DNA of 64,000 bases. It comes from Lachnospiraceae bacterium. Its GTDB lineage: Bacteria > Bacillota > Clostridia > Lachnospirales > Lachnospiraceae. Where the stretch lies: NCBI GenBank assembly GCA_017625815.1, contig JAGAKD010000090.1, positions 1,693-65,692 on the forward strand, written 5' to 3'. Within the stretch, counting starts at the first letter, position 1; each line of letters starts with the position of its first letter. The position numbers and the translations under genes were made by a program. Under the pieces are notes generated by a model, which did no database searches, was not told the DNA's origin, and worked only from the letters and a program-made list of their open reading frames with translations. Shown piece by piece: positions 15,770-49,134 of the stretch.

Positions 15770-15802
15770 ATACCTATTTTTAGAGAATAAGGAGGGATTT
15801 TT

Positions 15803-17269: not shown

Positions 17270-17282
17270 TCTCTAGAAACTC

Positions 17283-17311
17283 TTGACAAGTCTAAAAATA
17301 TGTGGTATAAT
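17283..17311 (+). promoter_or_regulatory. sigmaA-type promoter
   Basis: TTGACA-17-TATAAT with TG extension. Confidence 0.85.
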
Positions 17312-17350
17312 ATATATATAGAAACGAGTTAAAAAGGAGAGTTTTATATT

Positions 17351-17881
17351 ATGGCTAAAATATCTTTATCTAAATTAAATTTAGAAAAAAATACTGAAAT
17401 TAATAAGATTACTATAAATGGTAATGAAATAGAAGTTTTATCTTATCTACCTTTATCAGAAAAAATTAGTATGATAAATATAGTTGTTCAAGAAAGCATA
17501 GAAGGAAGAATTGTTAATCCTATGTTAGTAGATAGTTTATTCCACACGTATCTTGTAATGGCATATACTAATATTTCATTTACTACTGCTCAAAAAGAAA
17601 AGATGTTAGAAACTTATGATTTAATGGAAAAAAATGGTTTAATATCAGAAGTTGTAAAAGCTATACCTCCAAATGAATATAATGACTTAGTAGTAAGTCT
17701 TGAAGAGTATGTAAAAGCAACTGAAGTAGAATTAAATTCTATAGCAAATGTAATTAAATTATCATTAGATGCTATGGTAGAAACTTTTGGTAGAGCTTCA
17801 TCAGAATTAGAATCTCTTAATTTAGATAGTGAAAAACTAAAAACTGTTCTTGCTATAGCCAAGGATAATGGAGCCATATAA
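17351..17881 (+). CDS. hypothetical protein, candidate tail assembly chaperone
   Basis: 176 aa directly upstream of the tape measure gene; ITINGNEIEV..YLP start. Confidence 0.5.
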   Translation: MAKISLSKLNLEKNTEINKITINGNEIEVLSYLPLSEKISMINIVVQESIEGRIVNPMLVDSLFHTYLVMAYTNISFTTAQKEKMLETYDLMEKNGLISEVVKAIPPNEYNDLVVSLEEYVKATEVELNSIANVIKLSLDAMVETFGRASSELESLNLDSEKLKTVLAIAKDNGAI

Positions 17882-26210: not shown

Positions 26211-26239
26211 AAGGAGGCGAAAGCCTCCTTTTTCTTTTT
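26211..26239 (+). terminator. Rho-independent terminator
   Basis: AAGGAGGC-GAAA-GCCTCCTT plus T-run. Confidence 0.85.
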
Positions 26240-26305: not shown

Positions 26306-29170
26306 ATGGATATGAATAATATTCAAGAGGCTTTATTTAAGACTATTGAAACTATTACAAATGGTAAACTTAGTCAAATAAAGTTTGATAAAACTATTGA
26401 AGCAATAGTTATGTCAGATGAAAAAGCAAATCTTGGAGAGTACGAGTTAAAGTATCAAGACTTATTATTCACAGGTTATTCATCTAATGGTACATCACAA
26501 TTTAGAAAAGATGATACTGTGCTTGTTTTAATCCCAGATGGAGATATGAGCAAAAGGAAGACTATAATCTCTTCTAGTAAAAACGAAGGAGAAAAGATTA
26601 TAAATTTTGAAGAAGTCGTAGATAGAACTGGTATAAACTTTGTTGATGAACCAGTTGATTTTGAGATTAAACTATCAACTACCTCTGATGAAGTTGTAAG
26701 TTTTAAATTAAAAGACGAATTAATGGTTAGTCAATACCCAGGAAAGAAATATCTAGCAATCGGGGCAGAGATAACTACTAATATAAGTTCAGAAGATAGA
26801 GATGGAACATATGGTATCGCAATAGACTGCGAGTTTTTAACAGAAGACGGAACAGAAAGAGTACCTCATACTTTTGAATTTAATACATTAAATGTTACTG
26901 GTAATCCATATCAATCTAAAGGAGGATACAAAGAAACTAAAATACCCCTTTTAGAACAAAGACTTGTAAAGATTGTTGGTGCCAGAGCCTTCTCAAAGGG
27001 GTTCTCTAAAGGCAAAGATAAGATAAAATTTAAAAATATAGTAGTAGAATATGTTAGCATAAGAGAACAAGATAAAAGTGAATATAGTGGAAATATACAA
27101 GCACCAAAAGGAACCCACTTTAGAAATGGGACTTTATATCCAGATGAAAAACTTCCACTAATAATGGAATTTAAGCAAAGAGGAGAAGTTCTTCAAACAG
27201 ACGCAATATCATATAAGTGGTTTGTAATGAATAGTGATGTTAATAATAGCGACCATCCAGACTACCATCCAGATGCTGGATTAGGTTGGGAGTGGCTAAA
27301 ATCAGATAGTTATGAAGCTGAATTAATAGAAGGAGTTGGAACTTCTACATTAAGCGTTGCCGCTCCATTCGTACCAACATTCTCAGAACTTAAATGTATT
27401 GCTACTTATGAAGAAAAAGGTGTCTCAGTGGTAGAGACAATTACTCTTGTAGACCATACAGAACAAATGAGTATAAATATGGATAGTAGTAATGGGGTAA
27501 GCTTTATAAATGGTGTTGGTTCAACCACTTTAACTTGTAATATAACTCAAAATGGAAGACCTTTAGAAGAAGTTGAATTAGAATATGAGTGGGCGCAAAT
27601 AAAAGAAGATGGAAGTATTACACAACTTAAAGATAGTGCTGATAATACTTTAGATGTATTTGCTAGTAATATTGGTATGAAATCTAACTTTACTTGTGAG
27701 GTATCTGTTAAAGGAGCAGAAAGACCAATAGCTACTGGTCAAATTACTCTTGTTAATATAATTGACGGCCGAACTCAAGGAGTTGTAATAGTTGGAGGTT
27801 TTAGAACTGTATTATATGACGCAGATGGAAACGCTCCAGAGAATCTTCCTAGAGAGGGGTTTCAATTTGATGTATACGAAAATGGTGAAAAAATTACAAC
27901 TGGCATAGATTGGACTTGGAGTATTCCTCCAGTAGAGAACACTCTATTGAAACTAGAAAACGCAACTATTGATGCCAATGGTAGGCAAACAACAAAAAAC
28001 GAAGTTCTTAATCTAGGAGTAGTAGATACATTTGATATTAATAAAAATCAAAACTCAATACTTCTTGAAGTTAGATATACTTCTAATGGAATAACAAATA
28101 TCCTAAGAGATTATGCTAATATAGCTATTACTAAAGTTGGTGGCAATGGAGCAGATGGACCAGCAGGTAAACCGGGTGAAGATGGTAGTGTTTATGTTTA
28201 TGAAATACAAGGAGGAAGTTCTACAATTAACTATGATGGTATGGCTTCAAATCCGCATCCAAAAACATTAAACGAGTTTGTATTAATGTTCTCTAAAAAT
28301 GGAGACGCTAGTCTAGCAAAAGAAATACATTCTGTTCAATGGGAATTACCAGCCAAAAGCAACTGCTGTTTAAGTTTTGAGGGACAAGACCCAGGAGTAA
28401 GAAGAATAACTACTCTTCAAGATTTAAACGGGTCAAGTAATAATCCTCATAAAGTAGTATTAGTGGCAGATGATACTTGGACAGAAGAAAAGTTTAATAA
28501 CTATTTAAGCGTTAAATTCACTCACGACAATCTAACTTTTAGAGAAACTTATCCAATATCAATATCTAAGAATGGTGCCGCGGGTTATACAATATCAGTA
28601 ATACCAAATACATTTACTTTTAATGCTGGAGAGAATAACATAGTTCTAGAGAATAGAGAGATTCTTATTAACTTTGATATAAAAGATGGAAATGGAGCAG
28701 AGGTACCGTATATAATAGAAAGTTTTAACACTCCTAGTGGAGTACAAATAACTAGAACAGAGAATGGAAAGAGTGTTCTTTTCACAATAATAAATGACAT
28801 TACAATGCCAAAAGAGGGAACAGTTGACTTTGTATTAAAGATTGATTCAAAGAGGTACTATCAGTCTTTTGCTTTCTCAAGAGTTTTAGATGGTAATTCT
28901 CCATATATAATTACTCTGATGTCAACAAATGGATTAACTTTTAAAAGAGGAGATATACAAACTCAGATAATTGCCAACTTTACCAAAGGAATTGAAACTG
29001 TAAATCCATTAACTATTCAAGACAATATCTCTTGGATAAAAAAGGATAAAACTGGAGTAGAGGAAGTTGGTTGGGTGCCAAACTATGTGGATGGGCAAAA
29101 ACATATAATAAATATAAGCCCTTACGATATTTTAGAGAAGGCAACTTTTGAATGTAGATTAGATTTATAG
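26306..29170 (+). CDS. tail/baseplate protein with tandem Ig-like domains and a short collagen-like linker
   Basis: Follows the tape measure gene; N-terminal OB-like segment; repeated beta-sandwich units; GADGPAGKPGEDG. Confidence 0.7.
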   Translation: MDMNNIQEALFKTIETITNGKLSQIKFDKTIEAIVMSDEKANLGEYELKYQDLLFTGYSSNGTSQFRKDDTVLVLIPDGDMSKRKTIISSSKNEGEKIINFEEVVDRTGINFVDEPVDFEIKLSTTSDEVVSFKLKDELMVSQYPGKKYLAIGAEITTNISSEDRDGTYGIAIDCEFLTEDGTERVPHTFEFNTLNVTGNPYQSKGGYKETKIPLLEQRLVKIVGARAFSKGFSKGKDKIKFKNIVVEYVSIREQDKSEYSGNIQAPKGTHFRNGTLYPDEKLPLIMEFKQRGEVLQTDAISYKWFVMNSDVNNSDHPDYHPDAGLGWEWLKSDSYEAELIEGVGTSTLSVAAPFVPTFSELKCIATYEEKGVSVVETITLVDHTEQMSINMDSSNGVSFINGVGSTTLTCNITQNGRPLEEVELEYEWAQIKEDGSITQLKDSADNTLDVFASNIGMKSNFTCEVSVKGAERPIATGQITLVNIIDGRTQGVVIVGGFRTVLYDADGNAPENLPREGFQFDVYENGEKITTGIDWTWSIPPVENTLLKLENATIDANGRQTTKNEVLNLGVVDTFDINKNQNSILLEVRYTSNGITNILRDYANIAITKVGGNGADGPAGKPGEDGSVYVYEIQGGSSTINYDGMASNPHPKTLNEFVLMFSKNGDASLAKEIHSVQWELPAKSNCCLSFEGQDPGVRRITTLQDLNGSSNNPHKVVLVADDTWTEEKFNNYLSVKFTHDNLTFRETYPISISKNGAAGYTISVIPNTFTFNAGENNIVLENREILINFDIKDGNGAEVPYIIESFNTPSGVQITRTENGKSVLFTIINDITMPKEGTVDFVLKIDSKRYYQSFAFSRVLDGNSPYIITLMSTNGLTFKRGDIQTQIIANFTKGIETVNPLTIQDNISWIKKDKTGVEEVGWVPNYVDGQKHIINISPYDILEKATFECRLDL

Positions 29171-29224
29171 AAGATGAAAGACTATTATAGAATATTATTT
29201 TTTAAGAAAAAAAGGAGAGATAAT

Positions 29225-30982
29225 ATGGCTATAGTGGCACAAGGTCAAATTTCGATAGTAGACTTACATGATATGCCTCCCGTACAGGCACATCTAGACG
29301 CAAATAAATCAAAAACAATAATAAAAATGAGAGACAACTCTATAAGCCCAAACATCACAGCGAGCGATGCTTTACTTATATCGGCAGAGCTTTATGAGTC
29401 TGGCTCTCAAACAAACCTTTTCTCAAAAGCTAGTGGAATAGGAGCAAATGGAACTATAACAGGTATAACTTGGACGGTAAGACAAGGAAGTACTTTAATA
29501 CTACCAGCTAACTATAGCACAAATGGTATTAGTATATCAGCTCCAAGTGGATACTATGCTAACAGTCAAATGAAGATTACGAAAGCCGCAACTTTAGACC
29601 CAAATTTAACCGTGTCAGCGGTTATTGAATATAGATACATAGGCATGGATGAAGCTACTCCAATAACCATAGACATAGACTTCTCTACAGTTTATCATGG
29701 TTCTGATGGAGATGATGCTTACTCTCTTTCAATGAGTAATACGGCACATATATTCCCAATTAATCCAACAAATGGAACTCTTATACCAGGAGTTAGTACA
29801 ACTTGTGATTTTGAGCTTTATCAAGGTAATGTTAAACAAGATGGTTTTACTATTACAAAAGGAAATCACTCCAACTTGTTCAACGTTAATTTAGGTTCTT
29901 TTGATTCAACAAATAAGAAGCAAACAGTTACGATTTCTGTTAATGAAGCTGTAGCAGCGAATATAAGAGCTACTGGAGCCCCAGAGACAGAACAAGGTGT
30001 TATTCCTTTTACTATAACTGCTAAGGACGGAAAAACAAAATTAAAGCATGATTTCTCTTGGGCAGTAAGTTCTAAAGGGGTAAATGGTAATGATAGTACA
30101 TCATATTGGATGATACCTAGTACTACAAGACTTGTTTACAAGCCAGACGCCAAAACTGGGAATTTTGCTTTTGATAAAACCTACATAACGCTACAAGGTA
30201 AAAAACAAACTGGAACAAACCCGGTACAAGACGCTGGAAGTGCTGTAAAGTTTTCAACTGTATTATATGATGAAACAGATACAAAAATAGGAGATACAAT
30301 AACTGGAACTAGAATACCAGCATCTGGAAATCTAAATGCCAATACTAGAAAAATAGTGATTGAAATGAGAACCAACGATGGAGACAGTATTCTTTTAGAT
30401 ACTGAAACTATTCAAGTTCAAGTAATTGAAAAGGACCCGGTAACAGTTTCTTTAACAAGTAATACTAGAGAGGTTAGAAACAGTACAGGAACGGCTACTT
30501 TAACTTTCTCTGTATTTAGAAAAGGAAAAGATGTATCAACTACTTGCGGAGATATAACTTGGAGGGTAGGAGAAACAACTTCAACAAATAAGACAAATAC
30601 ATTAACTATTGCTGGTTCAAGTATAAATAACTTTGTTAATGTAAAAGCAAGTGTTACTATACAAGGTACAACTTATTATGACACTATTTCAATAATAGAC
30701 GTAAGCGACCCAATCCAAGTAATGATAATGTCTTCTCTTGGAGACCAATTTGTCAATGGATTTACTAGCACTGAACTAACTGCTGACATATGGCAAAACG
30801 GAGATAAGATAGATGAAGATGGAAGTAAATATATTTATACTTGGAAAAAGTTTAATAGAAACGGAGACAGAGATAACACATTTGGAACAAATGGAGTTAA
30901 AACAGGAAAAACAATTACTGTAACTGGAACAGAAGTTTCAAGAAAAGCTGTATTTGTATGTGAATTATCAACAAAGTCATAA
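29225..30982 (+). CDS. Ig-like-domain tail fibre segment
   Basis: Start moved to ATG 29225 after AAGGAG; Thr-rich beta domains paralogous to 26306..29170. Confidence 0.7.
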   Translation: MAIVAQGQISIVDLHDMPPVQAHLDANKSKTIIKMRDNSISPNITASDALLISAELYESGSQTNLFSKASGIGANGTITGITWTVRQGSTLILPANYSTNGISISAPSGYYANSQMKITKAATLDPNLTVSAVIEYRYIGMDEATPITIDIDFSTVYHGSDGDDAYSLSMSNTAHIFPINPTNGTLIPGVSTTCDFELYQGNVKQDGFTITKGNHSNLFNVNLGSFDSTNKKQTVTISVNEAVAANIRATGAPETEQGVIPFTITAKDGKTKLKHDFSWAVSSKGVNGNDSTSYWMIPSTTRLVYKPDAKTGNFAFDKTYITLQGKKQTGTNPVQDAGSAVKFSTVLYDETDTKIGDTITGTRIPASGNLNANTRKIVIEMRTNDGDSILLDTETIQVQVIEKDPVTVSLTSNTREVRNSTGTATLTFSVFRKGKDVSTTCGDITWRVGETTSTNKTNTLTIAGSSINNFVNVKASVTIQGTTYYDTISIIDVSDPIQVMIMSSLGDQFVNGFTSTELTADIWQNGDKIDEDGSKYIYTWKKFNRNGDRDNTFGTNGVKTGKTITVTGTEVSRKAVFVCELSTKS

Positions 30983-31010
30983 GATAAAAAGAACAAAAGG
31001 AGAGAAACAT

Positions 31011-34000
31011 ATGTCAAAGATATTAGCACAAGGAATGATAACTCTTACTCAACTATATGAAGGAGCGCAAGTTATTCTTACTCCCGCTGCTGTGCTTATT
31101 CCATGTGATAGCAATGAAACTCCTAAACCTAATGCTTATATTAATGCCTTTACTAATGTAAAGGTATTTTTAGGCACAATGGATATTACTAGCAAAATAA
31201 CATTGGGAACATTGGAGTATTCTGATAGTACAGTAAAAGCGAGTAAAACTGGAACTAAGGTTTCAATAACTACTATAACAACTAGAACTGGGTATGTTGA
31301 TATTCCAGTTAGCGTTACTATTGATGGAGAAACAATAGATTTAGGAAAGCACAGATTTAGCTTTGTTAAACAAATAGATGGACAGACTGGACAAACTGGT
31401 GCTCCAGGAGCTCCAGGATTTAGTTATACATTAAATATAAAAGGCGGAACTAGAGGTGTTGCTTACGCAGCAAATGGAACAAACCCAGAGCCTAAAACCT
31501 CTTCTCAATTCTCTGTTGAGCTATTGAAAAATGGGGTTAAGGTAACTAATCCAGCCAGCATATCATGGACTTGTGGAGGAAATTTAAGTGGGTCATCTTC
31601 AGCAGCCACTTTTACTCCTACAATTAAAAGTACGTATAACTCTGAGTCTTCTTACGTAAAAGTATCTATTAAAGAATTCGCAGCTAGTCTAGCAGTGGAA
31701 GAAACAATTCCAATAATTTGTACTAAACATGCTGATGGACTAGATTGGATAAATGAATGGAACAATAAATATGTTCAAGTAGGAACAGAAAAAATAATTA
31801 CTCCAAAGATTTTTGCGGGTACAAAAAATAGCGCGAATGAACTTACTGGAGTAGCTATTGGTAGAGACGTACTAGGTGGGAATGCGAATAAGGTAATAGG
31901 TATTGTTGGATATAAGAAAAATACTCCTGTATTTTCTCTTGACCAAGACGCGAACTTTTTTGTTAGTTCTAGTGGTAATGCTGGAGATATTAAAAACGGA
32001 ACTAATAACGCAAAAGGAATTTACTTTGATGGAAATAATTTATATGTATCTGGTAAGGTTAAAATAAGCGGAGGCTCTACCATTGGAGAGAGTAATACTT
32101 TAGTTGAGGATGTTATTAATAACTCTAATCTAGGAGCGCAAGCAAATAACAAATTAGATAACCTTTCTATTGGAGGAAGAAACTTATTCAGAAATTCAAA
32201 GTTCACAGAAGGATTTAAATATTGGTCAGTCAGCAATGAAACTTCAACTGTCAACGATTCAACTTTTGGGACCGTTGCAAAGGTTGTTACTAGTGTACCA
32301 GCTAAAGGGATAAATCAAACCATACAGGTTGGCAAAACATTAGCAGTTGGGAAAGAATACACATTATCTTGTTATGTAAAAGCTAATGTAAGCACAAAAG
32401 TATCACTGGCTTTGAATGGTAGTGGGAATGCACTAGCAACCACATTCAATATTGGAACAGAGTGGACAAGGGTAAATGCTACCTTCAAAAACAATGGAAA
32501 TAATACAGTTCCTAGAATATACACAACAGAATCAAAGGCTGTTGAATTGTATATTGCCGAACCCAAGTTTGAGGAAGGAAATAAGGTGACAGATTATACA
32601 CCTGCTCCAGAAGATGTACAAGCCGATGTTGATAAAAAAGCAAACAGTTCAGATGTATATAAGAAAACTGAGACTTATACAAAAACTGAAACAGATTCAG
32701 CAATTCAAGTTTCCAAGGATGCTATTGAGTTAGGGATTTCAAATACTTATGAGACTAAAACTAATGTAGAATCTAAGATATCAACTGCTAACACAAATAC
32801 TCTTAATTCTGCTAAATCTTATGCAGATACTAAGAAAAACGAAGCTATATCTAGTGCTAGTGCTGATGCTACAAATAAAGTTAATTCAGCTAAGAATGAA
32901 TTAAATACAAAGATTGATGGTATCCAGATTGGTGGAAGAAACTTATTACTTAATAGTGATAATGGCTATTTAAATGATTTAAGTGTATATAATGGTACGA
33001 ATATTACTTATTCAAATGTTGATGGTTGGAGAAGGCTGACATTTACAAATCAATTGAATCATGAAATAGTTCAGAATAAATGGTTTGCTCCAACACAACT
33101 AGGAAATTATACTTTCAGTATAATATGTAGAACCGATGCAACATCTATTACAACAAGTATTTCTGTATTCACATCTCCAGGTGGACACAGACCTGTTCCA
33201 GCTTCTGTTGAAAATCTTGGGAATGGTTTATACCGAATTGTAGCTTCTTTTAGCATAAGTAATTTATATAGTATAAGAGTTGTTGACCTTCAAAACTTTA
33301 AAACTGTTGGTGCAACTTATGTTGAATTTAGATACCCGATGTTAGAAGTGGGTAATAAGGTTTCTGCATGGTCATCAGCTCCTGAGGACGTGCAAGCTAA
33401 TATAGACAAAAAGGCAAATAGCATAGATGTATATACTAAGTCAGAAACTTATACAAAGAGTGAAACAGATTCAGCTATTAAAGTAGCTAAAGATGAAATC
33501 AATCTAGGAGTATCTCAAACTTATGAAACTAAAACTAATGTAGAAACTAAGATTAATGGTATTAGTGTTGGAGGAACTAACTTGGCATATGATACCAATA
33601 AAGGTGCAACTGCTTGGAGTTGGGGTATTCAAACAAACGGTGGTAAGACAATTACTGACTATTTGGCTGATGGTATTAACGGTGTTAAAATGGTCAAGGA
33701 TGGAACTGCTGGAAGTGGATGGAATTATGTGAGCTATGGAAGATTCAAGCGTGATAAAATTACTCCGGCAACTACATATGTAGTATCATTTGAAATGAAG
33801 TCGAATCTAACATTTAACATTGGTTCGGTCAATTTAATGAATGGTAATTCTTCAGATTCACTGCTTAAATCAAGTACTGCGGTTCAAAATAAAGTAACAG
33901 CAAATTCAAAAGCATGGAATAAAATCGTATTCAAATTAACAACTCTTGATACGTTGCCATCATCAACACAACAAGTAATTTATATTACTGGTGTTCCATA

Positions 34001-37000
34001 TAGTGCAAATGCTACACACTATTTTCGCAATCTTAAGTTAGAGGTTGGTAACACAGCTACTACATGGTCTCCGGCCCCTGAAGACATAGCAAAGGATATA
34101 GCTAATGCTAAAAATGAAGCTGTTAACGCCGCTTCAACTGATGCAACTAATAAAGTTAATTCAGCTAAGAATGAATTGAACACAGCAATAAACAAGAAAG
34201 CTAATTCAACTGATGTATATACTAAATCAGAAGTATATACAAAAAATGAAACTAACTCTCAAATATCTGCTACAACAAATGCTATTACTTCAAGGGTTTC
34301 AAGCTTAGAGAGTAAAGAAGTTGCTAATAGGAAAGTTACCGCTTTTAGATATGTAAGAGATTGGTTGAGAGGTAGTTCAGTTAATAGTGGAAATCATTGG
34401 GTGGAACTACAGGTTTGGGCAAATGGCTCTAATATAGCACAAGGGAAAGCTGTAACTACAAATGGAACTGTTAATTCAAGTTATCCAATAAATAGATTTA
34501 CTGATGGTAATACCTCTTCTTCTCAATATGCAGAGCTTCAAAATGATAATAGTTGGAGATATTTACAAGTAGATTTGGGGGAAATTCATTATAATATTGA
34601 TTATCTAAGAGTGTGGCATTACTATAGTGATTCAAGAAGATATAATCATAAATTAGAGGTGTCTGTTGATGGCTCAACTTGGTACACAATTTATAATTCA
34701 GATATAAGTGGAACATATAAAGAAACTGCTGATGGTAGAGTTCACATAATAAATGAAACTTCTACAGAAAAAAGACTTAAAACAGCAGAGAATAAGATTA
34801 CCGATAGTGCTATAATAAACACAGTTTCTAGTACAATTCAAAATGCTAAAAATGAGGCAATTAATAGTGCTAATAGCTCAACAGATAATAAATTACAGAG
34901 CTATGCCACAAATTCATCTTTAACACAAACTGCGAATGATATTACTGCTAAATTCACAAGTAGTGGAGGCTATAACCTATTAGAGAATAGCGATGCCAAA
35001 AACGGGCAGTATATGTGGACTGGCAACGGGGCAACCTTAACAATAGGAACTTCGGGAGCAAGCCCATTTTTCGGTGGAAATGAGTTTAAGTCAACTTTCC
35101 CTAATGGGTTAAAATATAGTAAATCTATCAAACTAAAAGCCAATACTGACTATGTATATGAGGGATGGATATATTGCAATGCATCTTTCGGAGGGTCAAA
35201 CGTAACCCCTTTACATTACTGGTGCATGGACAGGCCTGATACCGCAGGACAAGCACAATTGGAAATATTAGACTATAGACAAAACATTACAAAGAATGTT
35301 TTTAATAAATGTTATGTTCATTTTAGAACCAAGTCGGGTAATGTTTATTTTACCCCTTTTGTGTACGGAGGTCCTGATGGTCAAATGGTAGCTGTTAGAC
35401 AGTTATCTTTAACAGAGGGAAAAGTGGAAACAGCATGGACGCCACACCCAAGTGAAATTTATGAGGGTTCAACTGTTATCGATGGTAGTGGAGTTACTGT
35501 AAATAATGGTGCTTTAAGAGTTAAAGATGGTAATGGAAATTTAATGTTAGAAGGGAACGCGTCAGGTACTTTATATTTAAGAAAACAATTAAATGTTGGA
35601 ACTAAGGCTACTATAAGTGCTACTGATGGTATAGCTATCTTAGACAATTGTCTAAAAATACATGATAATCTTAGTAAGAGTGCGTTTACCGCTGAGTTAA
35701 ATTCTTCTCAGATTATAATGAGAAACAATACACTTACTGCTGCAGGAGGACCTTTGTATGAAGGAACAATAGATGTAATGGATAATCTGAAAGGTTTAAC
35801 ACTAACTTCTATTGATTATGGTGGTATAGGTAATATCACAATGGAAGGTAAACTTCAGTTGCCATATACAACAACTGCTACAAATATAATTATGAGTGGT
35901 CAAACCACTATAGGAGCGCATAGAACTATAGAACTGTCAGGAGATAATGGGCATATAAGATGCAATACTATCGCTATAAAGAGCAATGGGGCTTGCGATA
36001 ACATATTACCAGGTGATGATGCTTATATCGGAGATGTAAATGTAGCACACTCTATAGGTATTCAAAGTACCTCCGATAGGAGACTAGGAAAAATCTATCT
36101 CGGAAACAGAATGGATGTTTTTGTAGGGTGCGACAGTCCGGGAGGACGACTTACATTGTCATCTAGATGGATGGATTTTCTTGCACCGGACGGGGCAAAC
36201 TTTATGGGCAACATTATATGTAGAGATGGCTATGAAGCTGGAGTAACTGGATTTGAGAGTTATAGAGATGGAGGACACATCAGAATAGCTCCAGCTAATC
36301 ATAACGGGGCTATAGCTTTTGAACAGTTCAACTCTGGTGGTTCAGCTGTCGGCATGAGATTGATAGCAGATGGCTGGTTTTTAAGACCAAACGGAAATGA
36401 TGGAGGAATATTGGGATATCAGAGTATTAGATGGCAAGAAATTTGGTGTACTAGAGGAGCATTTAATGGGTCAGATAGTAAACTAAAAGAAAATATAACT
36501 CCATTAGGTGTTGGCGTTGCTAGACCACATAGTAATGATATTGTAACTCTTGATGACTTATACAATTATGTTAAAGAGGCCAAAACTTACACATTCAATT
36601 ATAAAAAAACTAATGAAACAATGTTAGGGATATTAGCGGACGAAATTCCAAGAAACATATTCAATAAAATAGGGGTAATGAGCAAGACTCAAGAAGAATA
36701 TGAGGAAGAATTAAAGAAAAAAGAGGAATTAACCGAAATTCTTTCTAAAACTCCAATGCCTTTAGATAATAAAGGAGAAGAAAATCGATATGCTATAGTA
36801 GAGGGAACTGGTTTAACATATGCCGAACTTAAAGAAGAGGTTAATAAAGAGATTGAAGAGCCTATGCAACTTATTAACGCACCTTCACAAGTGGCGATGC
36901 TACAGACTGTTTTAAGTATGGCTATTAATAAGGTGGATACTTTAGAACAAGAAAACCAAGAGTTAAAAGATAGGTTGGATAAGCTAGAAAATTTAGTTCA

Positions 37001-37019
37001 ATCTATAGTGAATAAATAA
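31011..37019 (+). CDS. large tail fibre/receptor-binding protein: Ig-like domains, four CBM-like modules, F5/8-C-like domain, C-terminal S74-like chaperone
   Basis: Start moved to ATG 31011 after AAGGAG; repeated GG(R/T/Y)NL...(PA)PED modules; SDSKLKENI motif and a terminal coiled coil. Confidence 0.85.
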   Translation: MSKILAQGMITLTQLYEGAQVILTPAAVLIPCDSNETPKPNAYINAFTNVKVFLGTMDITSKITLGTLEYSDSTVKASKTGTKVSITTITTRTGYVDIPVSVTIDGETIDLGKHRFSFVKQIDGQTGQTGAPGAPGFSYTLNIKGGTRGVAYAANGTNPEPKTSSQFSVELLKNGVKVTNPASISWTCGGNLSGSSSAATFTPTIKSTYNSESSYVKVSIKEFAASLAVEETIPIICTKHADGLDWINEWNNKYVQVGTEKIITPKIFAGTKNSANELTGVAIGRDVLGGNANKVIGIVGYKKNTPVFSLDQDANFFVSSSGNAGDIKNGTNNAKGIYFDGNNLYVSGKVKISGGSTIGESNTLVEDVINNSNLGAQANNKLDNLSIGGRNLFRNSKFTEGFKYWSVSNETSTVNDSTFGTVAKVVTSVPAKGINQTIQVGKTLAVGKEYTLSCYVKANVSTKVSLALNGSGNALATTFNIGTEWTRVNATFKNNGNNTVPRIYTTESKAVELYIAEPKFEEGNKVTDYTPAPEDVQADVDKKANSSDVYKKTETYTKTETDSAIQVSKDAIELGISNTYETKTNVESKISTANTNTLNSAKSYADTKKNEAISSASADATNKVNSAKNELNTKIDGIQIGGRNLLLNSDNGYLNDLSVYNGTNITYSNVDGWRRLTFTNQLNHEIVQNKWFAPTQLGNYTFSIICRTDATSITTSISVFTSPGGHRPVPASVENLGNGLYRIVASFSISNLYSIRVVDLQNFKTVGATYVEFRYPMLEVGNKVSAWSSAPEDVQANIDKKANSIDVYTKSETYTKSETDSAIKVAKDEINLGVSQTYETKTNVETKINGISVGGTNLAYDTNKGATAWSWGIQTNGGKTITDYLADGINGVKMVKDGTAGSGWNYVSYGRFKRDKITPATTYVVSFEMKSNLTFNIGSVNLMNGNSSDSLLKSSTAVQNKVTANSKAWNKIVFKLTTLDTLPSSTQQVIYITGVPYSANATHYFRNLKLEVGNTATTWSPAPEDIAKDIANAKNEAVNAASTDATNKVNSAKNELNTAINKKANSTDVYTKSEVYTKNETNSQISATTNAITSRVSSLESKEVANRKVTAFRYVRDWLRGSSVNSGNHWVELQVWANGSNIAQGKAVTTNGTVNSSYPINRFTDGNTSSSQYAELQNDNSWRYLQVDLGEIHYNIDYLRVWHYYSDSRRYNHKLEVSVDGSTWYTIYNSDISGTYKETADGRVHIINETSTEKRLKTAENKITDSAIINTVSSTIQNAKNEAINSANSSTDNKLQSYATNSSLTQTANDITAKFTSSGGYNLLENSDAKNGQYMWTGNGATLTIGTSGASPFFGGNEFKSTFPNGLKYSKSIKLKANTDYVYEGWIYCNASFGGSNVTPLHYWCMDRPDTAGQAQLEILDYRQNITKNVFNKCYVHFRTKSGNVYFTPFVYGGPDGQMVAVRQLSLTEGKVETAWTPHPSEIYEGSTVIDGSGVTVNNGALRVKDGNGNLMLEGNASGTLYLRKQLNVGTKATISATDGIAILDNCLKIHDNLSKSAFTAELNSSQIIMRNNTLTAAGGPLYEGTIDVMDNLKGLTLTSIDYGGIGNITMEGKLQLPYTTTATNIIMSGQTTIGAHRTIELSGDNGHIRCNTIAIKSNGACDNILPGDDAYIGDVNVAHSIGIQSTSDRRLGKIYLGNRMDVFVGCDSPGGRLTLSSRWMDFLAPDGANFMGNIICRDGYEAGVTGFESYRDGGHIRIAPANHNGAIAFEQFNSGGSAVGMRLIADGWFLRPNGNDGGILGYQSIRWQEIWCTRGAFNGSDSKLKENITPLGVGVARPHSNDIVTLDDLYNYVKEAKTYTFNYKKTNETMLGILADEIPRNIFNKIGVMSKTQEEYEEELKKKEELTEILSKTPMPLDNKGEENRYAIVEGTGLTYAELKEEVNKEIEEPMQLINAPSQVAMLQTVLSMAINKVDTLEQENQELKDRLDKLENLVQSIVNK
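32604..34260 (+). repeat. internal direct repeats between the CBM modules of the tail fibre
   Basis: 32604-32779 resembles 33378-33553 (APEDVQA..DKKANS.DVY.K.ETYTK.ETDSAI...YETKTNVE.KI). Exact 29-bp repeat AATAAAGTTAATTCAGCTAAGAATGAATT at 32874-32902 and 34149-34177. Confidence 0.85.
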
Positions 37020-37096
37020 AACCCGAAACATAAGACAAAAGAAGAGGTAGGAGTAGCAGAGCTAGACAAACATAAATTTAACATTAACTAAACAAC

Positions 37097-37130
37097 AAAA
37101 GTGCTTTGGATTGCTCCCAAGCACTTTTTA
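37097..37130 (+). terminator. terminator-like hairpin after the tail fibre gene
   Basis: AAAAGTGCTTTGGA...TCCCAAGCACTTTT. Confidence 0.65.
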
Positions 37131-37163
37131 CACATAAATACTAAATTTAAAGGAGAAATGATT

Positions 37164-37430
37164 ATGTTAAAAATCACTAAAAGCAGAAACTTACAAGGAA
37201 CAATAGAAATAGAAGGGATGCCAGTAGTTCAACTATCAGCATCTATTACAATAGACCCATCTGATTTCACAATCTACAACAATGGTGGAGTTAACAGAAC
37301 AATATTAAACACAGATTTATACAGAAAGAATATTTCTACAATAAGACAAGAAATTGCTGAATTTGAAGAAGAAGTTTATCTAATGGAAGATGAAATGTTA
37401 GCTGCTTCTAAAGTAGAATTAGAAGAATAA
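37164..37430 (+). CDS. small hypothetical protein (possible fibre chaperone)
   Basis: RBS AAGGAG; start moved to ATG 37164; acidic C-terminal helix. Confidence 0.6.
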   Translation: MLKITKSRNLQGTIEIEGMPVVQLSASITIDPSDFTIYNNGGVNRTILNTDLYRKNISTIRQEIAEFEEEVYLMEDEMLAASKVELEE

Positions 37431-37484
37431 AAGATAATTACGCAAAGAGGCGTAGTAGAATTATTATAGAGGAGATGATTATAG

Positions 37485-39260
37485 ATGTCGACAATAGCAA
37501 GAAGTCAAATTACATTAACTGTAGTAGAGGATGGAGATGGATATTCTCTATCAATAAAAGGAGGAGTTAGGGGTATAGCATATGCCGCAGATGGTTCGAA
37601 TCCTAACCCTAAGACCTCTTCTCCTTTTACTGTTGAAGTTTTAAAAAATGGTGTTCCAATAACACCATTTTCATATACTTGGTTCTGTGGAGGTAATTTA
37701 AGTGGCTCATCCACAGAACCAACCTTTACTCCACTTATTAAGTCTGCTTATGTAAGTGGAGATTCTTTTGTAACAGTAATGGTTCAACTAGAAGAAAATA
37801 CGCAACCTTATAGTGAAACAGTACCTATTGTTTCTACTAAGTTTGCTGATGGATTAGATTGGATAATGGATTGGAACTCAACCGCGACAGTTATAAAAGA
37901 CAATAAGGTAATTACTCCTAAGATATTCGCAGGAAAGAACGAAGGGTCTGGTAGTACACCTTTAATAACAGGTGTTGCTATGGGACTAGACGTTTTAGGA
38001 GAAGTTGATAAAACAGTTGGACTGATTGGTTATTACAAGAATGACCCTAGATTTAAATTAGATGTAAATGGAAATTTCTTTGTCGGGTCTAACTGGGGAG
38101 GAATCTCTATCGGAAAAGGTGGAGGTTTAAAATATGATGCTGATAAAGAACTTCTTACTATTAGTGGTAATATAAACATTTTAGGTGGAGCAATAAAGAA
38201 TAAGGATGTAGACGAAGTTTTAAAGGAAATCAGTACCTCTGTATCCACTATTGAGGATTGGGGAGTTAGAGGAGCAGGAGGAGAAAAAATTGTTTCTATC
38301 AATGGAGGGGCAATTAAGGCTGATTCAATAACAGCAGATAAACTTATGATAAAAGGCTTAACTGTAAAGGATAATAATGATATTGCCACTCTTATGATAA
38401 CTCAAGAGGGAGATGTATTATTAGATGGTACTCTTCGCTCAAATAACTTTAGTAAATTAAATAAGACTGGATACCAAATAAGCAGAGATGGTAATGCCAT
38501 TTTAAATCAAGCAGAAGTAAGAGGAAAGGTTCAACTTCCAAATGCTGGAATAACAGATGAAGATGAAGGAGACAAAGCTGTAAGATTTTGGGCTGGAGGA
38601 AGTTATGAAAATAGAAATTACGCTCCATTCAAAGTCTATCAAGATGGTAGCATAGAAGCTCTTAGTGGAATTTTCAATGGAAGCATTACAGGTGATTATG
38701 ACAACTACAAAGTTCACATAAGGAAAGATACTTTTTATATTGATGAAGAGGAGGCATTCTTTGACCTACCTTCTTTATCTATTGTAAGAAGAAGAGAGAG
38801 AAAAGACTCAGCAAGACACATTCAGTTCTCTCCAACTCAGAGTATAATAAATACAGACCTATACTTTGGAAGAAATGAAGATAGAGACTTTGAATATTTA
38901 CAAAGTCAAAAACAAATTACAACAAAAACAAAGAACATAAGCAGGACTAAATTAGGTTCAATTGTAATGAATTATATTTATGAGAATAACCAAAAATCTG
39001 ACTATCATATTTTAAATAGTTCTGGAGGAAATGGCGGTTCTCATGATATTAGATATGAAAAAAATACTGGAGGATTAATATTTGAAAGCAGTGGCTCTAG
39101 TATAGGAGAAAGACCATTTGACTACAAATTTAAAAAGCCTACTGGTGATGTTGTCGTATCTATAGAAGGGTCAATTGACTTAAAAAAAGGTATAACCTCT
39201 CCTAAGAATAATATAGAAATGAGAGCAACTTCAGACGGATTTGCTTTTTATGTTATTTAG
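37485..39260 (+). CDS. second tail fibre protein, N-terminal part paralogous to 31011..37019
   Basis: Shares GG.RG.AYAA.G.NP.PKTSS, W.CGGNLSGSS, ADGLDWI..WN and ITPKIFAG; also has SITADKL and APFKVYQDG fibre motifs. Confidence 0.8.
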   Translation: MSTIARSQITLTVVEDGDGYSLSIKGGVRGIAYAADGSNPNPKTSSPFTVEVLKNGVPITPFSYTWFCGGNLSGSSTEPTFTPLIKSAYVSGDSFVTVMVQLEENTQPYSETVPIVSTKFADGLDWIMDWNSTATVIKDNKVITPKIFAGKNEGSGSTPLITGVAMGLDVLGEVDKTVGLIGYYKNDPRFKLDVNGNFFVGSNWGGISIGKGGGLKYDADKELLTISGNINILGGAIKNKDVDEVLKEISTSVSTIEDWGVRGAGGEKIVSINGGAIKADSITADKLMIKGLTVKDNNDIATLMITQEGDVLLDGTLRSNNFSKLNKTGYQISRDGNAILNQAEVRGKVQLPNAGITDEDEGDKAVRFWAGGSYENRNYAPFKVYQDGSIEALSGIFNGSITGDYDNYKVHIRKDTFYIDEEEAFFDLPSLSIVRRRERKDSARHIQFSPTQSIINTDLYFGRNEDRDFEYLQSQKQITTKTKNISRTKLGSIVMNYIYENNQKSDYHILNSSGGNGGSHDIRYEKNTGGLIFESSGSSIGERPFDYKFKKPTGDVVVSIEGSIDLKKGITSPKNNIEMRATSDGFAFYVI

Positions 39261-39280
39261 AGAAAAAGGAGAGATTATAG

Positions 39281-42200
39281 ATGGCTTTAATTAGAAGTGG
39301 TAGTGTTGGTACCGAATCGCCCTACTTACAATATGAATTATACGCAGACCAAACTGGAGGTTCCGTAAATAATAGAACAATAAAGATAACTTTAAAAGCA
39401 AAGATAAGTTCTGGTTATTATGGTTATCCCGCAAATTGGAGAGCAAATATAAATGGAACTTGGTCTGGGTGGATGAGGTTAAAAGGAACGGAAAGTTGGA
39501 ATAAAAATGATGGTTTTAGAACTTTTGAGTATTCTGCTACAACTAATGTAGGAACAACTTCTTCAAAAGCTATAACAGTTGGATTTGGAATAGATAGTTA
39601 TAGTGGAGATGACTCTTGGGACTCAACAGTAACAGGTTCATTTACAGTAGGAGCAACAAATAGACCTCCAAATCCTCCATCGAATATAATAGTTAGAAAT
39701 GGAAGCTCTGCGAATAGTCCGGTTCTTAGTGCTGGAATAGTTCCAGAGAATATTACAACATTATATATAACTTGGAGTGCTGGGTCTGACCCTGATGGAG
39801 ACCAACTTACTTATGCCTTAAATGAAAGTATAAACAATGGAGGTTATGTTCAAAGAGATTTTGGAACAGATTTAGCGCACTCATACAATACAAATGGCTG
39901 GGATGAAGGTGGAACTATTCAGTTCTATGTAGATGCTAGAGATACAAAAGGGGCTTGGAGTAGTAAAACATACTCTGGAGTTCTTACAAAGAACAGATTA
40001 ACTGCGGGTACAATTTATGAATACTCAAATAATATCAATTTTAATACAAAATCATTTGAAGCTAGATTTCGTGGAGGGTCTAACACAGACAAGAGTGCGG
40101 TTACTTACTCTTGCTATTCTGATAGTATTACAATATATAATCAGACTTATACTTCAGATACTAAACAAACAATATTAATTTGGAGAACTGGAGACGCAAC
40201 TCCAGCTTCAAATCAACCATATATTAAATTCAATGAACTGGTCGAGCTGTATAGGTCTAATAATTTTACTGGAACACTAAGCATGGGTTTATTTTCAAAA
40301 AATACACATGGTACGAAAAAGAGCACCGTTGCTGCTGTCGTACAAGTTGATTTAAGAGTTGCGCCTGTTGCTCCTTCATCTGTATCAATAACTGGAGGAA
40401 AAGCCAAGAAAACAATAGCAGGTAGCACAGTATACTTGCCAAATGGAACTGATGATATTACTTTTTCTTGGATGGCAAGTACAAATCCTCTTAATGCTCC
40501 CTTCTCATATGACTTATATGAAGTATACAATGGGGAGGCAACCAAGATAGCAACTGTAGGTTCAAATAGCACTAGCTATTCTTATGTAAGACCTCCGCAG
40601 TTAAATGATATTGCCTCTTTAGCTTTTAAGGTAGTAGCAATTACAAGCTATGGTTATTCTAGTGAAAAAACATCAAATCAAATTAGATTAGAATATTATA
40701 ATCCACCTACAATATCAATAGGAGAAATATCAAGAGGAGATACAAGTGCTAGTGTTAATGCGCTAATAAAAATTAATACATCTATACCTTCTGTACAAGG
40801 AACAGGAACTTGGGAATGTAGTAATAATCAAAAAGGTAATATTACTACATCTAGTAGTAATATTAATATAACTAATTTAAAGTCTGATAGCACATATTCC
40901 CTTATTATATTATACAATGATAATAGTGGTTTGTCAACATCTAGAAGAGAGTCAATATCTATAGGAAAAAATCTTCCTATATTTTCAATTAATAAATTTG
41001 GTGTTGGAGTTAATGGATATGAAGCAAACAGCAGTTATTCTTTATTCACAAAAGGTAGTGGATATTTAGATGGATTAAGAATTAAAAGCAATAGTGGTTT
41101 AGAAGACTGTAATACTTATAAGACAGAAGAATTTTGGATAAATAGAACAAATGGGAAATCTTTAAATAGACCAACAAATTATGCTACTGTATTTAATATT
41201 GGAAGCGATAGCTCAACAAACTTCCAATTGGCATGTTCTTATACTGCTACTCCAGGCTTCTGGGTTAGAGGAAGACATGATACCACTGGAAACTATCATG
41301 ATTGGGCTCAAGTATATACAACACTAAATAAACCAACTGCTGCTGATGTAGGGCTATCAAACGTACAAAATAGAGCGTTTAACTGGAGTTGGGGAAGTTC
41401 TATACCAACTCATGTGTGGGGTTCTCAAGGAGATTCAACAAACCAATATGTATATAAAGTATCTACTCATGGTGATAGATTTAACTGCTTCCCATTTGTT
41501 GGCAGTGATGGAGTTATGGAGGTAGGTAAATATATTGATTTTCATGGTTCGTCAGATTCTACTGGAGATTTTCAAACAAGATTAACTTCAGTTTCTAATA
41601 CTGAATTTAATATATCAGCCGAAAATCTCACATTAGCAAACAACAATAACACTTGGAAATCTTTAGATTTAATGAGAAATGGATGTTTAGCGAGATTTGG
41701 TATAGGTTCAGATGGTACTGGCGCGGATGCGAACTGCGCAACATTGGAAACATGGAACAGTGGGGCTAGTGGTTATACAACAAGGTTGGAGGTTGGAGCT
41801 AATAGGCTAAGATATATAAAGAATATTGGTGGCTCACCAGCATTAAATGTTTGGGTAGATAGTGGTGCTCATGGAGGTATAGCCATTGGTTCTTCTTCTA
41901 CAACTTACTTAAAATGGTTAAGAGGTACTGCTCAGCTACAAGTTAGAAATTATGCTGATAATGCTTATACTCAAATTGTAGCAAGTTCATTTACTAATGG
42001 TTCAAGAAGAGAATATAAACAAGATATTGATGATATAGATGCTTCTATTGTAAAAGATATAGTTATGAATAACCATATTAAAACTTATCACTTAAAAGAA
42101 GAAGTTAAGGAAATGGAAAGTCTTGAAGCAGAAGCTCAAGCGTTGGGATTTGAGTTAGAAGAAGAAATGACAACTCCTAATACAAGAGCTGGTTTAATAC

Positions 42201-42370
42201 TTGAAGATTTAACACCAGAGGCTGATGATTTATTACATCCAGAAAGAACGGATGGTATTGATACTTATGCTATGGTGTCTGTATTATGGAAGTTCTGTCA
42301 AGAGCAACAAAAAGCAATAGACAGATTAGAACAAGAGAATAAAGAAATAAAAGAGAAACTGGGGCTTTAG
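39281..42370 (+). CDS. tail fibre/receptor-binding protein with Fn3-like domains and C-terminal S74-like chaperone
   Basis: Fn3-like units (NRPPNPPS...W.AGSDPDGD); W.QVYTTLNKPTAADVG; DGVMEVGKYIDFH; SRREYKQDI and a terminal coiled coil. Confidence 0.8.
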   Translation: MALIRSGSVGTESPYLQYELYADQTGGSVNNRTIKITLKAKISSGYYGYPANWRANINGTWSGWMRLKGTESWNKNDGFRTFEYSATTNVGTTSSKAITVGFGIDSYSGDDSWDSTVTGSFTVGATNRPPNPPSNIIVRNGSSANSPVLSAGIVPENITTLYITWSAGSDPDGDQLTYALNESINNGGYVQRDFGTDLAHSYNTNGWDEGGTIQFYVDARDTKGAWSSKTYSGVLTKNRLTAGTIYEYSNNINFNTKSFEARFRGGSNTDKSAVTYSCYSDSITIYNQTYTSDTKQTILIWRTGDATPASNQPYIKFNELVELYRSNNFTGTLSMGLFSKNTHGTKKSTVAAVVQVDLRVAPVAPSSVSITGGKAKKTIAGSTVYLPNGTDDITFSWMASTNPLNAPFSYDLYEVYNGEATKIATVGSNSTSYSYVRPPQLNDIASLAFKVVAITSYGYSSEKTSNQIRLEYYNPPTISIGEISRGDTSASVNALIKINTSIPSVQGTGTWECSNNQKGNITTSSSNINITNLKSDSTYSLIILYNDNSGLSTSRRESISIGKNLPIFSINKFGVGVNGYEANSSYSLFTKGSGYLDGLRIKSNSGLEDCNTYKTEEFWINRTNGKSLNRPTNYATVFNIGSDSSTNFQLACSYTATPGFWVRGRHDTTGNYHDWAQVYTTLNKPTAADVGLSNVQNRAFNWSWGSSIPTHVWGSQGDSTNQYVYKVSTHGDRFNCFPFVGSDGVMEVGKYIDFHGSSDSTGDFQTRLTSVSNTEFNISAENLTLANNNNTWKSLDLMRNGCLARFGIGSDGTGADANCATLETWNSGASGYTTRLEVGANRLRYIKNIGGSPALNVWVDSGAHGGIAIGSSSTTYLKWLRGTAQLQVRNYADNAYTQIVASSFTNGSRREYKQDIDDIDASIVKDIVMNNHIKTYHLKEEVKEMESLEAEAQALGFELEEEMTTPNTRAGLILEDLTPEADDLLHPERTDGIDTYAMVSVLWKFCQEQQKAIDRLEQENKEIKEKLGL

Positions 42371-43870: not shown

Positions 43871-44614
43871 ATGGAACTAGACCCAAATATGCTAGTTAGC
43901 GCACTAGCAAACAAAGACAATGATGGCTTAGGAGGAGGTAATGGACTTCTTTGGATTTTCTTGTTAATCCTATTCTGGGGAGGCGGAAATGGATTTAACC
44001 ACAGAGGAGGAGACGCTGCTATTGAAGGACAAATAGAAGCTGCTATAGCAAAAGCTGGGTCAAAAGGCTTATCAGACACTGCTATTTTAAATGCTATTCA
44101 AGGAAACAAAGAATCTATTGCTCAAATATCTAATACACTTGGAGTACAATTTGAAGCCGTAAGAAGTACATTAGCTTCAATGACTAATGGTATGTGCGAC
44201 TTAGGATACAAATTAGGACAAGATACTGCTAGTTTAATGTCAGCTATATCAGGAGGAAATGCTTCTTTAAGTAGACAATTAGCAGATTGTTGCTGCGCAA
44301 ATCAAAGAGCCATAGACGCCGCAAAATACGATATGGCTTCAGGATTCTGTCAAACTAATACAAACATCGACAAATCTACTTTCCAATTAGAAAGATATGT
44401 CGACCATAAATTTGAGCAAGCACAATCAGAAAACAGAGCTGGTTTCCAAGGAATTAGAGACTACTTAGTTGGAGAAAAAATCAATGCTTTACAAAACGAA
44501 TTACAATCTGCTCAATTAGCATTACAAAACAACAGTCAAACTAAAGCTATAATGGACTATATTGATAGCAAATGCGTATCAGCTGCTCCATCAACTCCAT
44601 CAACACCAGCTTAG
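43871..44614 (+). CDS. membrane-anchored coiled-coil protein with CCC motif
   Basis: Gly-flanked hydrophobic segment GLLWIFLLILFWGG; QLADCCC; C-terminal coiled coil; has its own terminator. Confidence 0.7.
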   Translation: MELDPNMLVSALANKDNDGLGGGNGLLWIFLLILFWGGGNGFNHRGGDAAIEGQIEAAIAKAGSKGLSDTAILNAIQGNKESIAQISNTLGVQFEAVRSTLASMTNGMCDLGYKLGQDTASLMSAISGGNASLSRQLADCCCANQRAIDAAKYDMASGFCQTNTNIDKSTFQLERYVDHKFEQAQSENRAGFQGIRDYLVGEKINALQNELQSAQLALQNNSQTKAIMDYIDSKCVSAAPSTPSTPA

Positions 44615-48032: not shown

Positions 48033-49124
48033 ATGGCACAAAAATTTCAAATTACTCATATAAATACAAGTGGCAATGTTTCTGTACTACACCCAGAAAC
48101 AAATGCTGACCAAATAGTGGATGGTAGCATTAATAAGATTTCAAAGAAAACTGAGGTTAGTGATTGGAATGCGAAATCTCAGGAGGTAGCAGAAGCTAGA
48201 TTAGGTAAAACAACTTTAAAAGAAAAGATTGAGTCTATAGATACTGCTCTTGAGCCAATAAATATTTTAACTGCGTTAAAGACAGTAGATGGAAGTGGAA
48301 GTGGACTTGACGCAGATACAGTAGATGGAAGAACTGTTGATGATACTAAAGCAACATCCTCAAACCTTTGGACCGGTCAAAAGGTTGCCAATGAATTAGG
48401 TAAAAAACTTAATACTACAGAAATTACTAAAATCGCCCAAGCTGAAAAGGTACTTCGTTTAAACTCGGAAGCAAAGCTAGAAGCAGATGTAAAAGGAAAC
48501 GCTGATACAGCTACATCTTGGCGTAAACCAAGTACTATAACTCTTGCTGGAGATGTTTCTGGTAATTTTAGTATAGCAGGTAATGAAAATGGTCCAATAA
48601 GTGTTACTACTCAAGTTAAAGATGACTCTCATAACCATTCTTATATGGTTAAAGGCGCTAATAGACTAGAAATGGGAACTAATAATATAACAGAATTTAA
48701 GAAAACTGGTGCTATATTAAGTGCTATAGACGCAAATGGAAACTTTACAGGCTCTGCTGCGAAAGTAGGAGGTTATAAAGTAGATAACTCTGGTGTGGGA
48801 GAAGCAATTTGGACGAGTAGGAAGATAACAGAAGTTATAGCTGATATTGGAGCTAAAGTTAATACGGATACACAAACAATACAAATCGGAAACTCATTAA
48901 AAATTAAATATGGCACAGTGAATATCGCAAATTTAAGCTCTGTTAGTATTACTTTTGATGAGCCTTTCCAAATGGTTTTATTTGATGGCAACTCTTTAGA
49001 AAGTGTTGACACAGACCAATTTTGTACAAAGAAAAGTGAAACTCTAACAACAAGGGGAGTTCAATATACTTTGAATAAGACAACAACAAAAGGTACTCTT
49101 ACTTGGTTTGTAGTTGGAGTGTAG
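48033..49124 (+). CDS. short tail fibre-like protein with gp53-like C-terminal domain
   Basis: HPETNADQI; DGSGSGLDADTVDG; GNADTAT; LKIKYG...ITFDEPF...WFVVG. Confidence 0.7.
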   Translation: MAQKFQITHINTSGNVSVLHPETNADQIVDGSINKISKKTEVSDWNAKSQEVAEARLGKTTLKEKIESIDTALEPINILTALKTVDGSGSGLDADTVDGRTVDDTKATSSNLWTGQKVANELGKKLNTTEITKIAQAEKVLRLNSEAKLEADVKGNADTATSWRKPSTITLAGDVSGNFSIAGNENGPISVTTQVKDDSHNHSYMVKGANRLEMGTNNITEFKKTGAILSAIDANGNFTGSAAKVGGYKVDNSGVGEAIWTSRKITEVIADIGAKVNTDTQTIQIGNSLKIKYGTVNIANLSSVSITFDEPFQMVLFDGNSLESVDTDQFCTKKSETLTTRGVQYTLNKTTTKGTLTWFVVGV

Positions 49125-49134
49125 GAGGCGTAAT

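Follow-up and report, generated by a model that had tools for sequence, protein, structure and literature searches.

A candidate donor-strand joint between separately encoded tail fibre proteins in a large Lachnospiraceae phage

How do tail fibre proteins that are encoded by separate genes come to be held together, end to end, in one fibre? The question is raised by a 64,000-nucleotide stretch of the Lachnospiraceae bacterium assembly GCA_017625815.1 (contig JAGAKD010000090.1, positions 1,693 to 65,692; hereafter the window), which is part of a 74-kb contig (G000:C37) of a large tailed phage and carries, 3' of its tape measure gene, a run of fibre genes that we name by their first nucleotide: 26306, 29225, 31011, 37485 and 39281. 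An earlier note, made from the sequence alone, had proposed that the products of the first four are joined in the manner of pilus subunits. We consider it probable, with fair confidence, that these genes encode a plug-and-socket joint and, through it, an ordered chain of anchor, extender and end protein, representing a split form of a central fibre that is a single chain in relatives. In such a joint the first 16 residues of one protein (the donor strand) would fill the missing G strand of the last immunoglobulin (Ig) domain of another (the socket). The joint appears to be real and conserved, with the binding itself predicted from models.

Ig-like domains lacking strand G and the strands that would complete them

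The motifs quoted in the earlier note were all found where it had placed them, and pairwise alignment bore out its view that one domain type is present in three homologous copies, one inside 26306 and one each at the C-termini of 26306 and 29225. Residues 346-469 of 26306 align with residues 457-584 of 29225 (28%, E 2e-12), as do residues 830-952 of 26306 with residues 458-581 of 29225 (E 9e-4). In a multiple alignment both terminal copies end at strand F, whereas the internal copies go one strand further, as had been claimed. AlphaFold2 models place strand G of the internal or penultimate domains at residues 474-485 of 26306 and 482-492 of 29225, and have the terminal domains finish on strand F, at residues 947-952 and 576-583, respectively. 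The model of 29225 (82-row alignment; mean predicted local distance difference test [pLDDT] 86) is a chain of five sandwiches, the fourth with strand G and the fifth ending on F. In the model of 26306 (14-row alignment, pLDDT 71) the head is built at low confidence as a helix and five strands, like the OB-like head of a spike; a search of 200 further genomes from the bin's family gave no match to this head.

As modelled, the socket fold is an I-set/PKD-like sandwich. Neither 26306 nor 29225 has a sequence match in the PDB up to E 1; the best PDB sequence matches of a profile of extenders were antibody and NCAM Ig domains (E 0.001-0.003), and Foldseek returned generic Ig or cadherin chains only. 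With VIA-align, the complete penultimate domain of 29225 (residues 403-495) matched Ig, PKD and phage tail domains at Z 8-10; no pilin was among the best 50 matches listed, although the terminal domain was barely covered in these, so that absence is unproven.

The strand that the terminal domains lack has counterparts at the N-termini of 29225, 31011 and 37485, each of which starts with a G-like strand. The earlier note's observation that in 37485 this strand leads into the same domain that follows it within 26306 was upheld (37485 residues 4-66 against 26306 residues 475-538, 39%, E 5e-7). Among the 5612 six-frame open reading frames of the whole assembly the donor pattern occurs in nine, and three of the nine are these genes; the bare F.C-near-end pattern of the sockets matches 136 of the same 5612 and is therefore unspecific without a domain profile. 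(The 82-row extender alignment was too diverged for pattern searches, for which narrower alignments were used.) In the monomer model of 29225, residues 1-14 are unplaced, with pLDDT below 50 for residues 1-3 and 5-14. D-x-x-D motifs follow both the donor strand (29261-29272) and the internal G strand (30698-30712) of 29225, and Asp16, Asp492 and Asp495 are invariant in 82 extenders; the motifs presumably recall the calcium-binding linkers of cadherin-like chains, which we regard as a candidate likeness.

Insertion of a donor strand into a socket was predicted for the C-terminal domain of 29225 and the N-terminus of 37485. Modelled as a single pair (29225 residues 403-585 with 37485 residues 1-122) from our own alignments, the complex scored 0.74, against 0.01 for the best of three controls; the mark by which such scores were read is reached by 116 of 157 solved complexes and by 2 of 215 mismatched pairs, and is rough, since our own alignments were used. 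The runs share at least 80% of contacts, and the partner has a pLDDT of at least 79. The confident interface is confined to residues 1-16 of 37485 lying on the terminal domain of 29225 (residues 496-583), antiparallel to strand F (residues 574-581). In the predicted core, Ile9 of 37485 packs on residues 501, 503 and 518 of 29225, and Leu11 on residues 566 and 571. The model supports the geometry of the joint, not its specificity.

Pairing, fusion and splitting in related phages

If sockets and donor strands work together, they should be found together, and in related loci they are, as the earlier note had expected. Among 243 stored loci including the window, whose 2125 adjacent gene pairs were reduced to 683, a donor start lay next after 63 of 71 socket-ending genes and after 6 of 612 other genes (Fisher p 1e-72, which is overstated). 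A socket ends the gene upstream of 31 of the 32 dereplicated extenders, the remaining one having no upstream gene; the gene downstream scores as a donor in 24 cases and is donor-like by eye in 6 more.

The two halves of the joint also occur within single polypeptides. The socket profile gave 114 internal hits, for the most part penultimate domains with their own G strand, and among the 114 we picked by eye 10 single-chain proteins in which a terminal-type socket is followed in the chain by a donor-type strand. SPG24 gp274 (P0051) is an extender fused to a tip, and P0190 is a single-chain fusion running from the anchor head type to the tip region. Conversely, a domain that is whole in the window is split in relatives. 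Three other contigs of the same assembly (C80, C66 and C44; L243-L245) carry anchors that end in a socket; that of C80 resembles residues 3-469 of 26306 (35%, E 4e-83) and has strand F as its last strand, and the gene after it opens with a strand that aligns to residues 472-488 of 26306, the internal strand G. These contigs represent the tail modules of three more related large phages. From these comparisons, the joint appears to have arisen by gene splitting at the F-G hairpin, and the presence of fused and split forms at two positions in one phage family makes its origin traceable. Fused and split forms, pairing counts and predicted complex all point to donor-strand complementation between separate gene products, the central claim of the earlier note.

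Sampling by the C-terminus of the tape measure protein gave 80 loci, of which 12 had no anchor and 25 were redundant. The 43 left comprise 20 closed single chains from a 26306-type head to a 31011/37485-type region, 18 other forms and 5 that run off the locus; from the 20 closed chains we conclude that the window genes would rebuild a known single-chain order. Genetic code table 15 was used where table 11 yielded either no anchor or one that was much shorter. Twenty of the 43 non-redundant relatives (within L251-L330) were read in this way, their anchor being found solely, or at much greater length, with table 15, a pattern that suggests recoding of TAG in part of the phage family. The window itself reads normally with table 11.

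By sequence, the joint is widespread. The extender 29225 belongs to PHROG 3267 (E 7e-46), whose profile matches both of its ends, and it shares with members of that family (Kirov gp253, Basilisk gp50, Deep Blue gp187, bIL286 orf55) the donor start, the socket end and a place between the anchor and receptor-binding genes; the window differs from most PHROG 3267 loci in having two donors 3' of the extender rather than one. The family carries the generic label "tail protein" only. Extender matches were found in 151 of 50,697 phage records and in 509 protein clusters; among the best 150 representatives a terminal socket is present in 136, of which 78 have a donor start as well. A direct search of viral contigs with 29225 gave no relative. 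In seven annotated loci the gene 5' of the extender ends in a socket on unrelated anchors, namely Tal proteins (Kirov, PJN02, bIL286, Javan221), Basilisk gp49 and Herelleviridae tail proteins (Deep Blue, SPG24).

This spread bears on a different explanation, in which no strand passes from chain to chain: the terminal domains would be stable with six strands, or completed within their own trimer, and the N-terminal strands would be leftovers of gene splitting. Predictors do favour completing an Ig fold, and a few terminal-type domains precede unrelated sequence. Leftovers would decay, however, and the pairing persists on unrelated anchors in phages of both siphovirus and myovirus type that infect Bacillus, Lactococcus, Streptococcus, Clostridia and Bacteroidales. 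Across 82 extenders the donor residues at positions 8, 13 and 16 show 90-100% conservation, and the controls of the complex prediction scored no higher than 0.01. We regard this explanation as highly improbable.

Several observations nonetheless weigh against a donor-strand joint or against the pairing proposed here. The model of the 26306 head is poor (pLDDT 33-72), and a fold search gave this head no assignment. None of the 43 loci selected by tape measure has a split anchor, so the joint is unnecessary in the wider family. The pairing counts are inflated: the extender served to find the loci, extender starts were used to train the donor score, and related loci do not count as independent. 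Of the 71 sockets, eight have no scoring donor next to them (6 are followed by a start that is donor-like by eye, 1 has a distant candidate and 1 has none), and the donors on C80, C66 and C44 fall below the donor-score threshold (-15 to -33) and were recognised by eye in an alignment. Four internal terminal-type hits (P0099, P0134, P0163 and P0170) are followed by no clear donor-like strand. Lastly, the halves of a split Ig domain can pass the complex prediction because they are like Ig folds already solved, and close cousins of the true partner pass as well; the prediction thus does not show the choice of socket by 37485.

Order of the fibre, its ends and the gene layout

The chain that we favour would start at 26306 and pass through one copy of 29225 to either 31011 or 37485. 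The earlier note had cast 26306 as an anchor that only accepts a strand and 29225 as an extender that both donates and accepts, and these roles were sustained. The genes from 26306 to 39260 would be pieces of the one long fibre chain of related phages, rejoined by donor-strand complementation, each piece being present three times around the tail axis. We infer this trimeric state from the collagen-like linkers, from the weak S74-like matches and, by analogy, from single-chain Tal extensions; the place of the fibre on the virion and the donor that each socket would take are inferred likewise.

Since 29225 carries both a donor and a socket, it could instead assemble head to tail into a polymer, as a major pilin does, and the fibre would then vary in length and carry an end protein as its cap, as the earlier note had considered. 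The donors of extender and tip are almost alike in several loci, that of Kirov included, such that the extender socket could accept the extender's own strand, and extender donors are more conserved than tip donors, as a double constraint would explain. Yet every one of the 102 proteins with the extender's first domain has it once per chain, single-chain relatives pass a single time from the anchor to the tip region, and anchor and extender sockets form two classes (among 29 chains the nearest neighbour is of the same class in 58 of 58 cases, with 38-40% identity within classes and 25% between). Moreover, the donor of 29225 differs in the window from both end donors, and the AlphaFold2 monomer leaves it out of its own socket, although geometry alone could explain the latter. 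Longer chains (L140-L144) use a second paralogue of the extender, not a repeat. Indirect evidence thus goes against self-polymerisation, which we judge unlikely. In L140-L144 (about 6065-17400) the two paralogues stand in a row, and a donor-like gene lies 3 kb on, beyond a 388-residue gene that we take, by eye, to resemble a reverse transcriptase. As to fibre length, the part of the Kirov paper available to us (PMC10454425) gives none; the 30-nm fibres in the corresponding part of the Izhevsk paper (PMC7685451) were not used, as Izhevsk is not among the 25 extender matches listed.

The ordered chain leaves two candidate ends, and comparison with a close relative (L162) separates them. The DNA of the two loci is 90-97% identical except at 32195-37402 and 41078-42329, blocks that correspond to the distal parts of 31011 and 39281; 37485 is 98% identical. 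Both distal ends vary between strains and are therefore likely under host selection. The first block also includes a gene for an 88-residue protein, which is likely an assembly partner of the 31011 end. The product of 31011 would bring its own sugar-binding modules (CBM_4_9 match, E 2e-8) and has an S74-like C-terminus below the cut-off (E 0.016); three related repeats spaced about 780 nucleotides apart (32562-34252) each contain a carbohydrate-binding-like module. The C-terminal third of 39281 is strain-variable and has a weak S74-like chaperone, and 39281 is likely the receptor-binding protein. The region common to 31011 (residues 136-356) and 37485 (residues 17-236) is 50% identical.

The earlier note had described 31011 and 37485 as alternative tips. 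Both do begin with donor strands, but the conservation of 37485 in a relative that has other distal parts in 31011 and 39281 argues against its being a free tip; it is likely a conserved stalk that would hold 39281, the attachment being suggested by its C-terminus. This is a short aromatic strand like that of Kirov gp252, which precedes a separate chaperone-ended protein, and the gene for such a protein comes next after 10 of 55 dereplicated tips and after 0 of 5 chaperone-ended tips (by a profile built from these genes). A profile of 12 MALSG-type receptor-binding N-termini does not match 39281 (E 5), and the link between 37485 and 39281 is accordingly a suggestion. At 39237-39330 the end of 37485 resembles the GWAF-type ends of Bacillus tips, which precede MALSG-type proteins, a possible second type of joint.

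With two ends and two sockets, the fibre might also branch at the anchor, with one end protein in the socket of 26306 and the other in that of 29225, giving a short and a long fibre on each virion. The relatives on C66 and C44, whose contigs carry no extender, have a single socket and two starts that look like donors; donors need not adjoin their socket (as in L140); and the strain variation of both distal ends would fit such an arrangement. On the other hand, 37485 docked well on the socket of 29225 (in prediction, and this is the only socket modelled with a donor), and its donor aligns more closely with that of 31011 than with that of 29225. Branching of this kind strikes us as quite unlikely, slightly more so than polymerisation. 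A set of two sockets and three donors was found in 5 of the 243 loci, these being the window, L162, L191, L192 and one spurious case. In L191 and L192 (about 9089-13500), which are unrelated prophage loci, two tip genes with near-identical donor starts follow one extender. One type of socket with two donors recurs in related phages, and branched or mixed fibres may occur. A broader proposal, a chaperone-free code of pilus type in which one socket takes two different receptor-binding ends, one genome yields virions, branched or mixed, whose two host-recognition tips evolve independently, and extender repeats set fibre length, appears doubtful to us, if less so than branching or polymerisation. 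We found no repeats suited to DNA inversion or tip switching: the DNA common to 31011 and 37485 amounts to 56-63 nucleotides at 79%.

The features of the locus are collected in Table 1. Portal, terminase-like and head genes are followed by the gene for a 2748-residue tape measure protein, the fibre genes 26306-39281, an amidase gene and more tail genes. An AGGAG-type ribosome site lies 5' of the ATG of each of 29225, 31011 and 37485; promoter-like sites are at chance level (65 vs 70.5), and a terminator-like hairpin (26211-26230) is located between the tape measure and anchor genes. Baseplate-like genes at 49114-54059 (of which 52296 matches tail PHROGs) lie beyond the lysis gene, a long way from the tape measure gene; in single-chain relatives similar genes directly follow the fibre gene. 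Between the amidase gene and a holin-like gene, 43871-44614 encodes a 247-residue Gly/Ala-rich protein with a CCC motif.

Table 1. Features of the fibre locus, in positions of the window
Feature	Position	Strand	Description
Anchor (P0001)	26306..29170	+	954 residues; directly 3' of the tape measure gene
Parts of the anchor	26306..29170	+	N-terminal helix and five strands, beta-sandwich chain, collagen-like linker (residues 612-629), C-terminal socket
Internal Ig domain of 26306	27461..27766	+	Complete; residues 386-487
In-chain strand G of 26306	27722-27766	+	Residues 473-487 of the internal Ig domain; counterpart of the donor strands
Socket 1	28898..29170	+	Anchor class; terminal Ig domain without strand G at the C-terminus of 26306
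Extender (P0002)	29225..30982	+	585 residues; PHROG 3267; donor strand, four complete sandwich domains, terminal socket
Donor strand 1	29225..29272	+	Residues 1-16 of 29225
Socket 2	30710..30982	+	Extender class; residues 496-585 of 29225, terminal Ig domain without strand G
End protein A (P0003)	31011..37019	+	2002 residues; donor strand 2 at residues 1-17
Later parts of 31011			Collagen-like linker, residues 136-356 common with 37485, carbohydrate-binding repeats, weak C-terminal S74-like chaperone
88-residue protein	37164..37430	+	PHROG 2566
End protein B (P0004)	37485..39260	+	591 residues; donor strand 3 (residues 1-16), residues 17-236 common with 31011, short aromatic C-terminal strand
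Likely receptor-binding protein (P0005)	39281..42370	+	1029 residues; no donor strand; outside the coordinates of the earlier note

Comparison with known systems

In chaperone-usher pili (Fim, Pap, Caf1), subunits are joined by donor-strand complementation and exchange, an Ig-like subunit without strand G being completed by the N-terminal extension of its neighbour. The phage proteins share with these pili the missing strand G, an N-terminal extension predicted to run antiparallel to strand F with alternating hydrophobic residues, and a logic of base, shaft and tip. They differ in that the domain is I-set/PKD-like and no pilin Pfam family is found in P0001-P0005, that donor and socket stand at opposite ends of a multi-domain protein, and that fused single-chain forms are common; indirect evidence from the sequences goes against a homopolymer. 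A scan of 25 of the window's proteins, on a contig that is itself partial, turned up neither a chaperone nor an usher. The phage joint would work like chaperone-usher complementation but, having no pilin family, falls outside the pili. We found no description of such a joint in phage fibres in a literature search of titles and abstract openings, with most subscription journals, and supplements, outside its scope. If the joint is as proposed, it would amount to donor-strand complementation on an Ig scaffold other than that of pili, would explain how, in many phages that infect Gram-positive or Bacteroidales hosts, fibre proteins from separate genes come to be attached to the tail, and would give a function to a large family labelled just "tail protein"; it would also be a natural means of displaying phage receptor-binding modules or of swapping them.

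The nearest solved phage case, in the part of PMC4742702 available to us, is that of Tuc2009, in which a segment of one baseplate protein completes the C-terminal sandwich of another: a C-terminal 25-residue hairpin of BppU completes the last beta-sandwich of BppA to form a composite titin-like domain. In Tuc2009 the hairpin hangs an accessory protein on the baseplate; in the window phage a single N-terminal strand would continue the chain, and the extender has both halves.

In composition the fibre resembles the Tal extensions of BK5-T, C41431 and streptococcal phages. In the parts available of PMC9692632 and PMC9437275 these are trimeric central fibres whose hub part is followed by an Ig-like domain, and which also have collagen-like linkers, carbohydrate-binding modules and a beta-prism at the C-terminus. 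In these AlphaFold studies of lactococcal and streptococcal Tal proteins the Ig domain is intact in single chains of one polypeptide, and the same parts mention neither a split domain nor a donor strand; one of the two papers states that it was unable to establish how the separate receptor-binding protein is linked to the core. Residues 380-490 of 26306 match PHROGs 588 and 6468, as Tal extensions do, and bIL286 orf54 and orf57 match opposite ends of the 1366-position PHROG 6468. The anchors of Kirov and bIL286 have a gp27-like Tal hub, whereas 26306 has none by the absence of a Prophage_tail match. Ig domain, collagen-like linkers and carbohydrate-binding modules are all present in the window as in a Tal central fibre, but spread over three genes.

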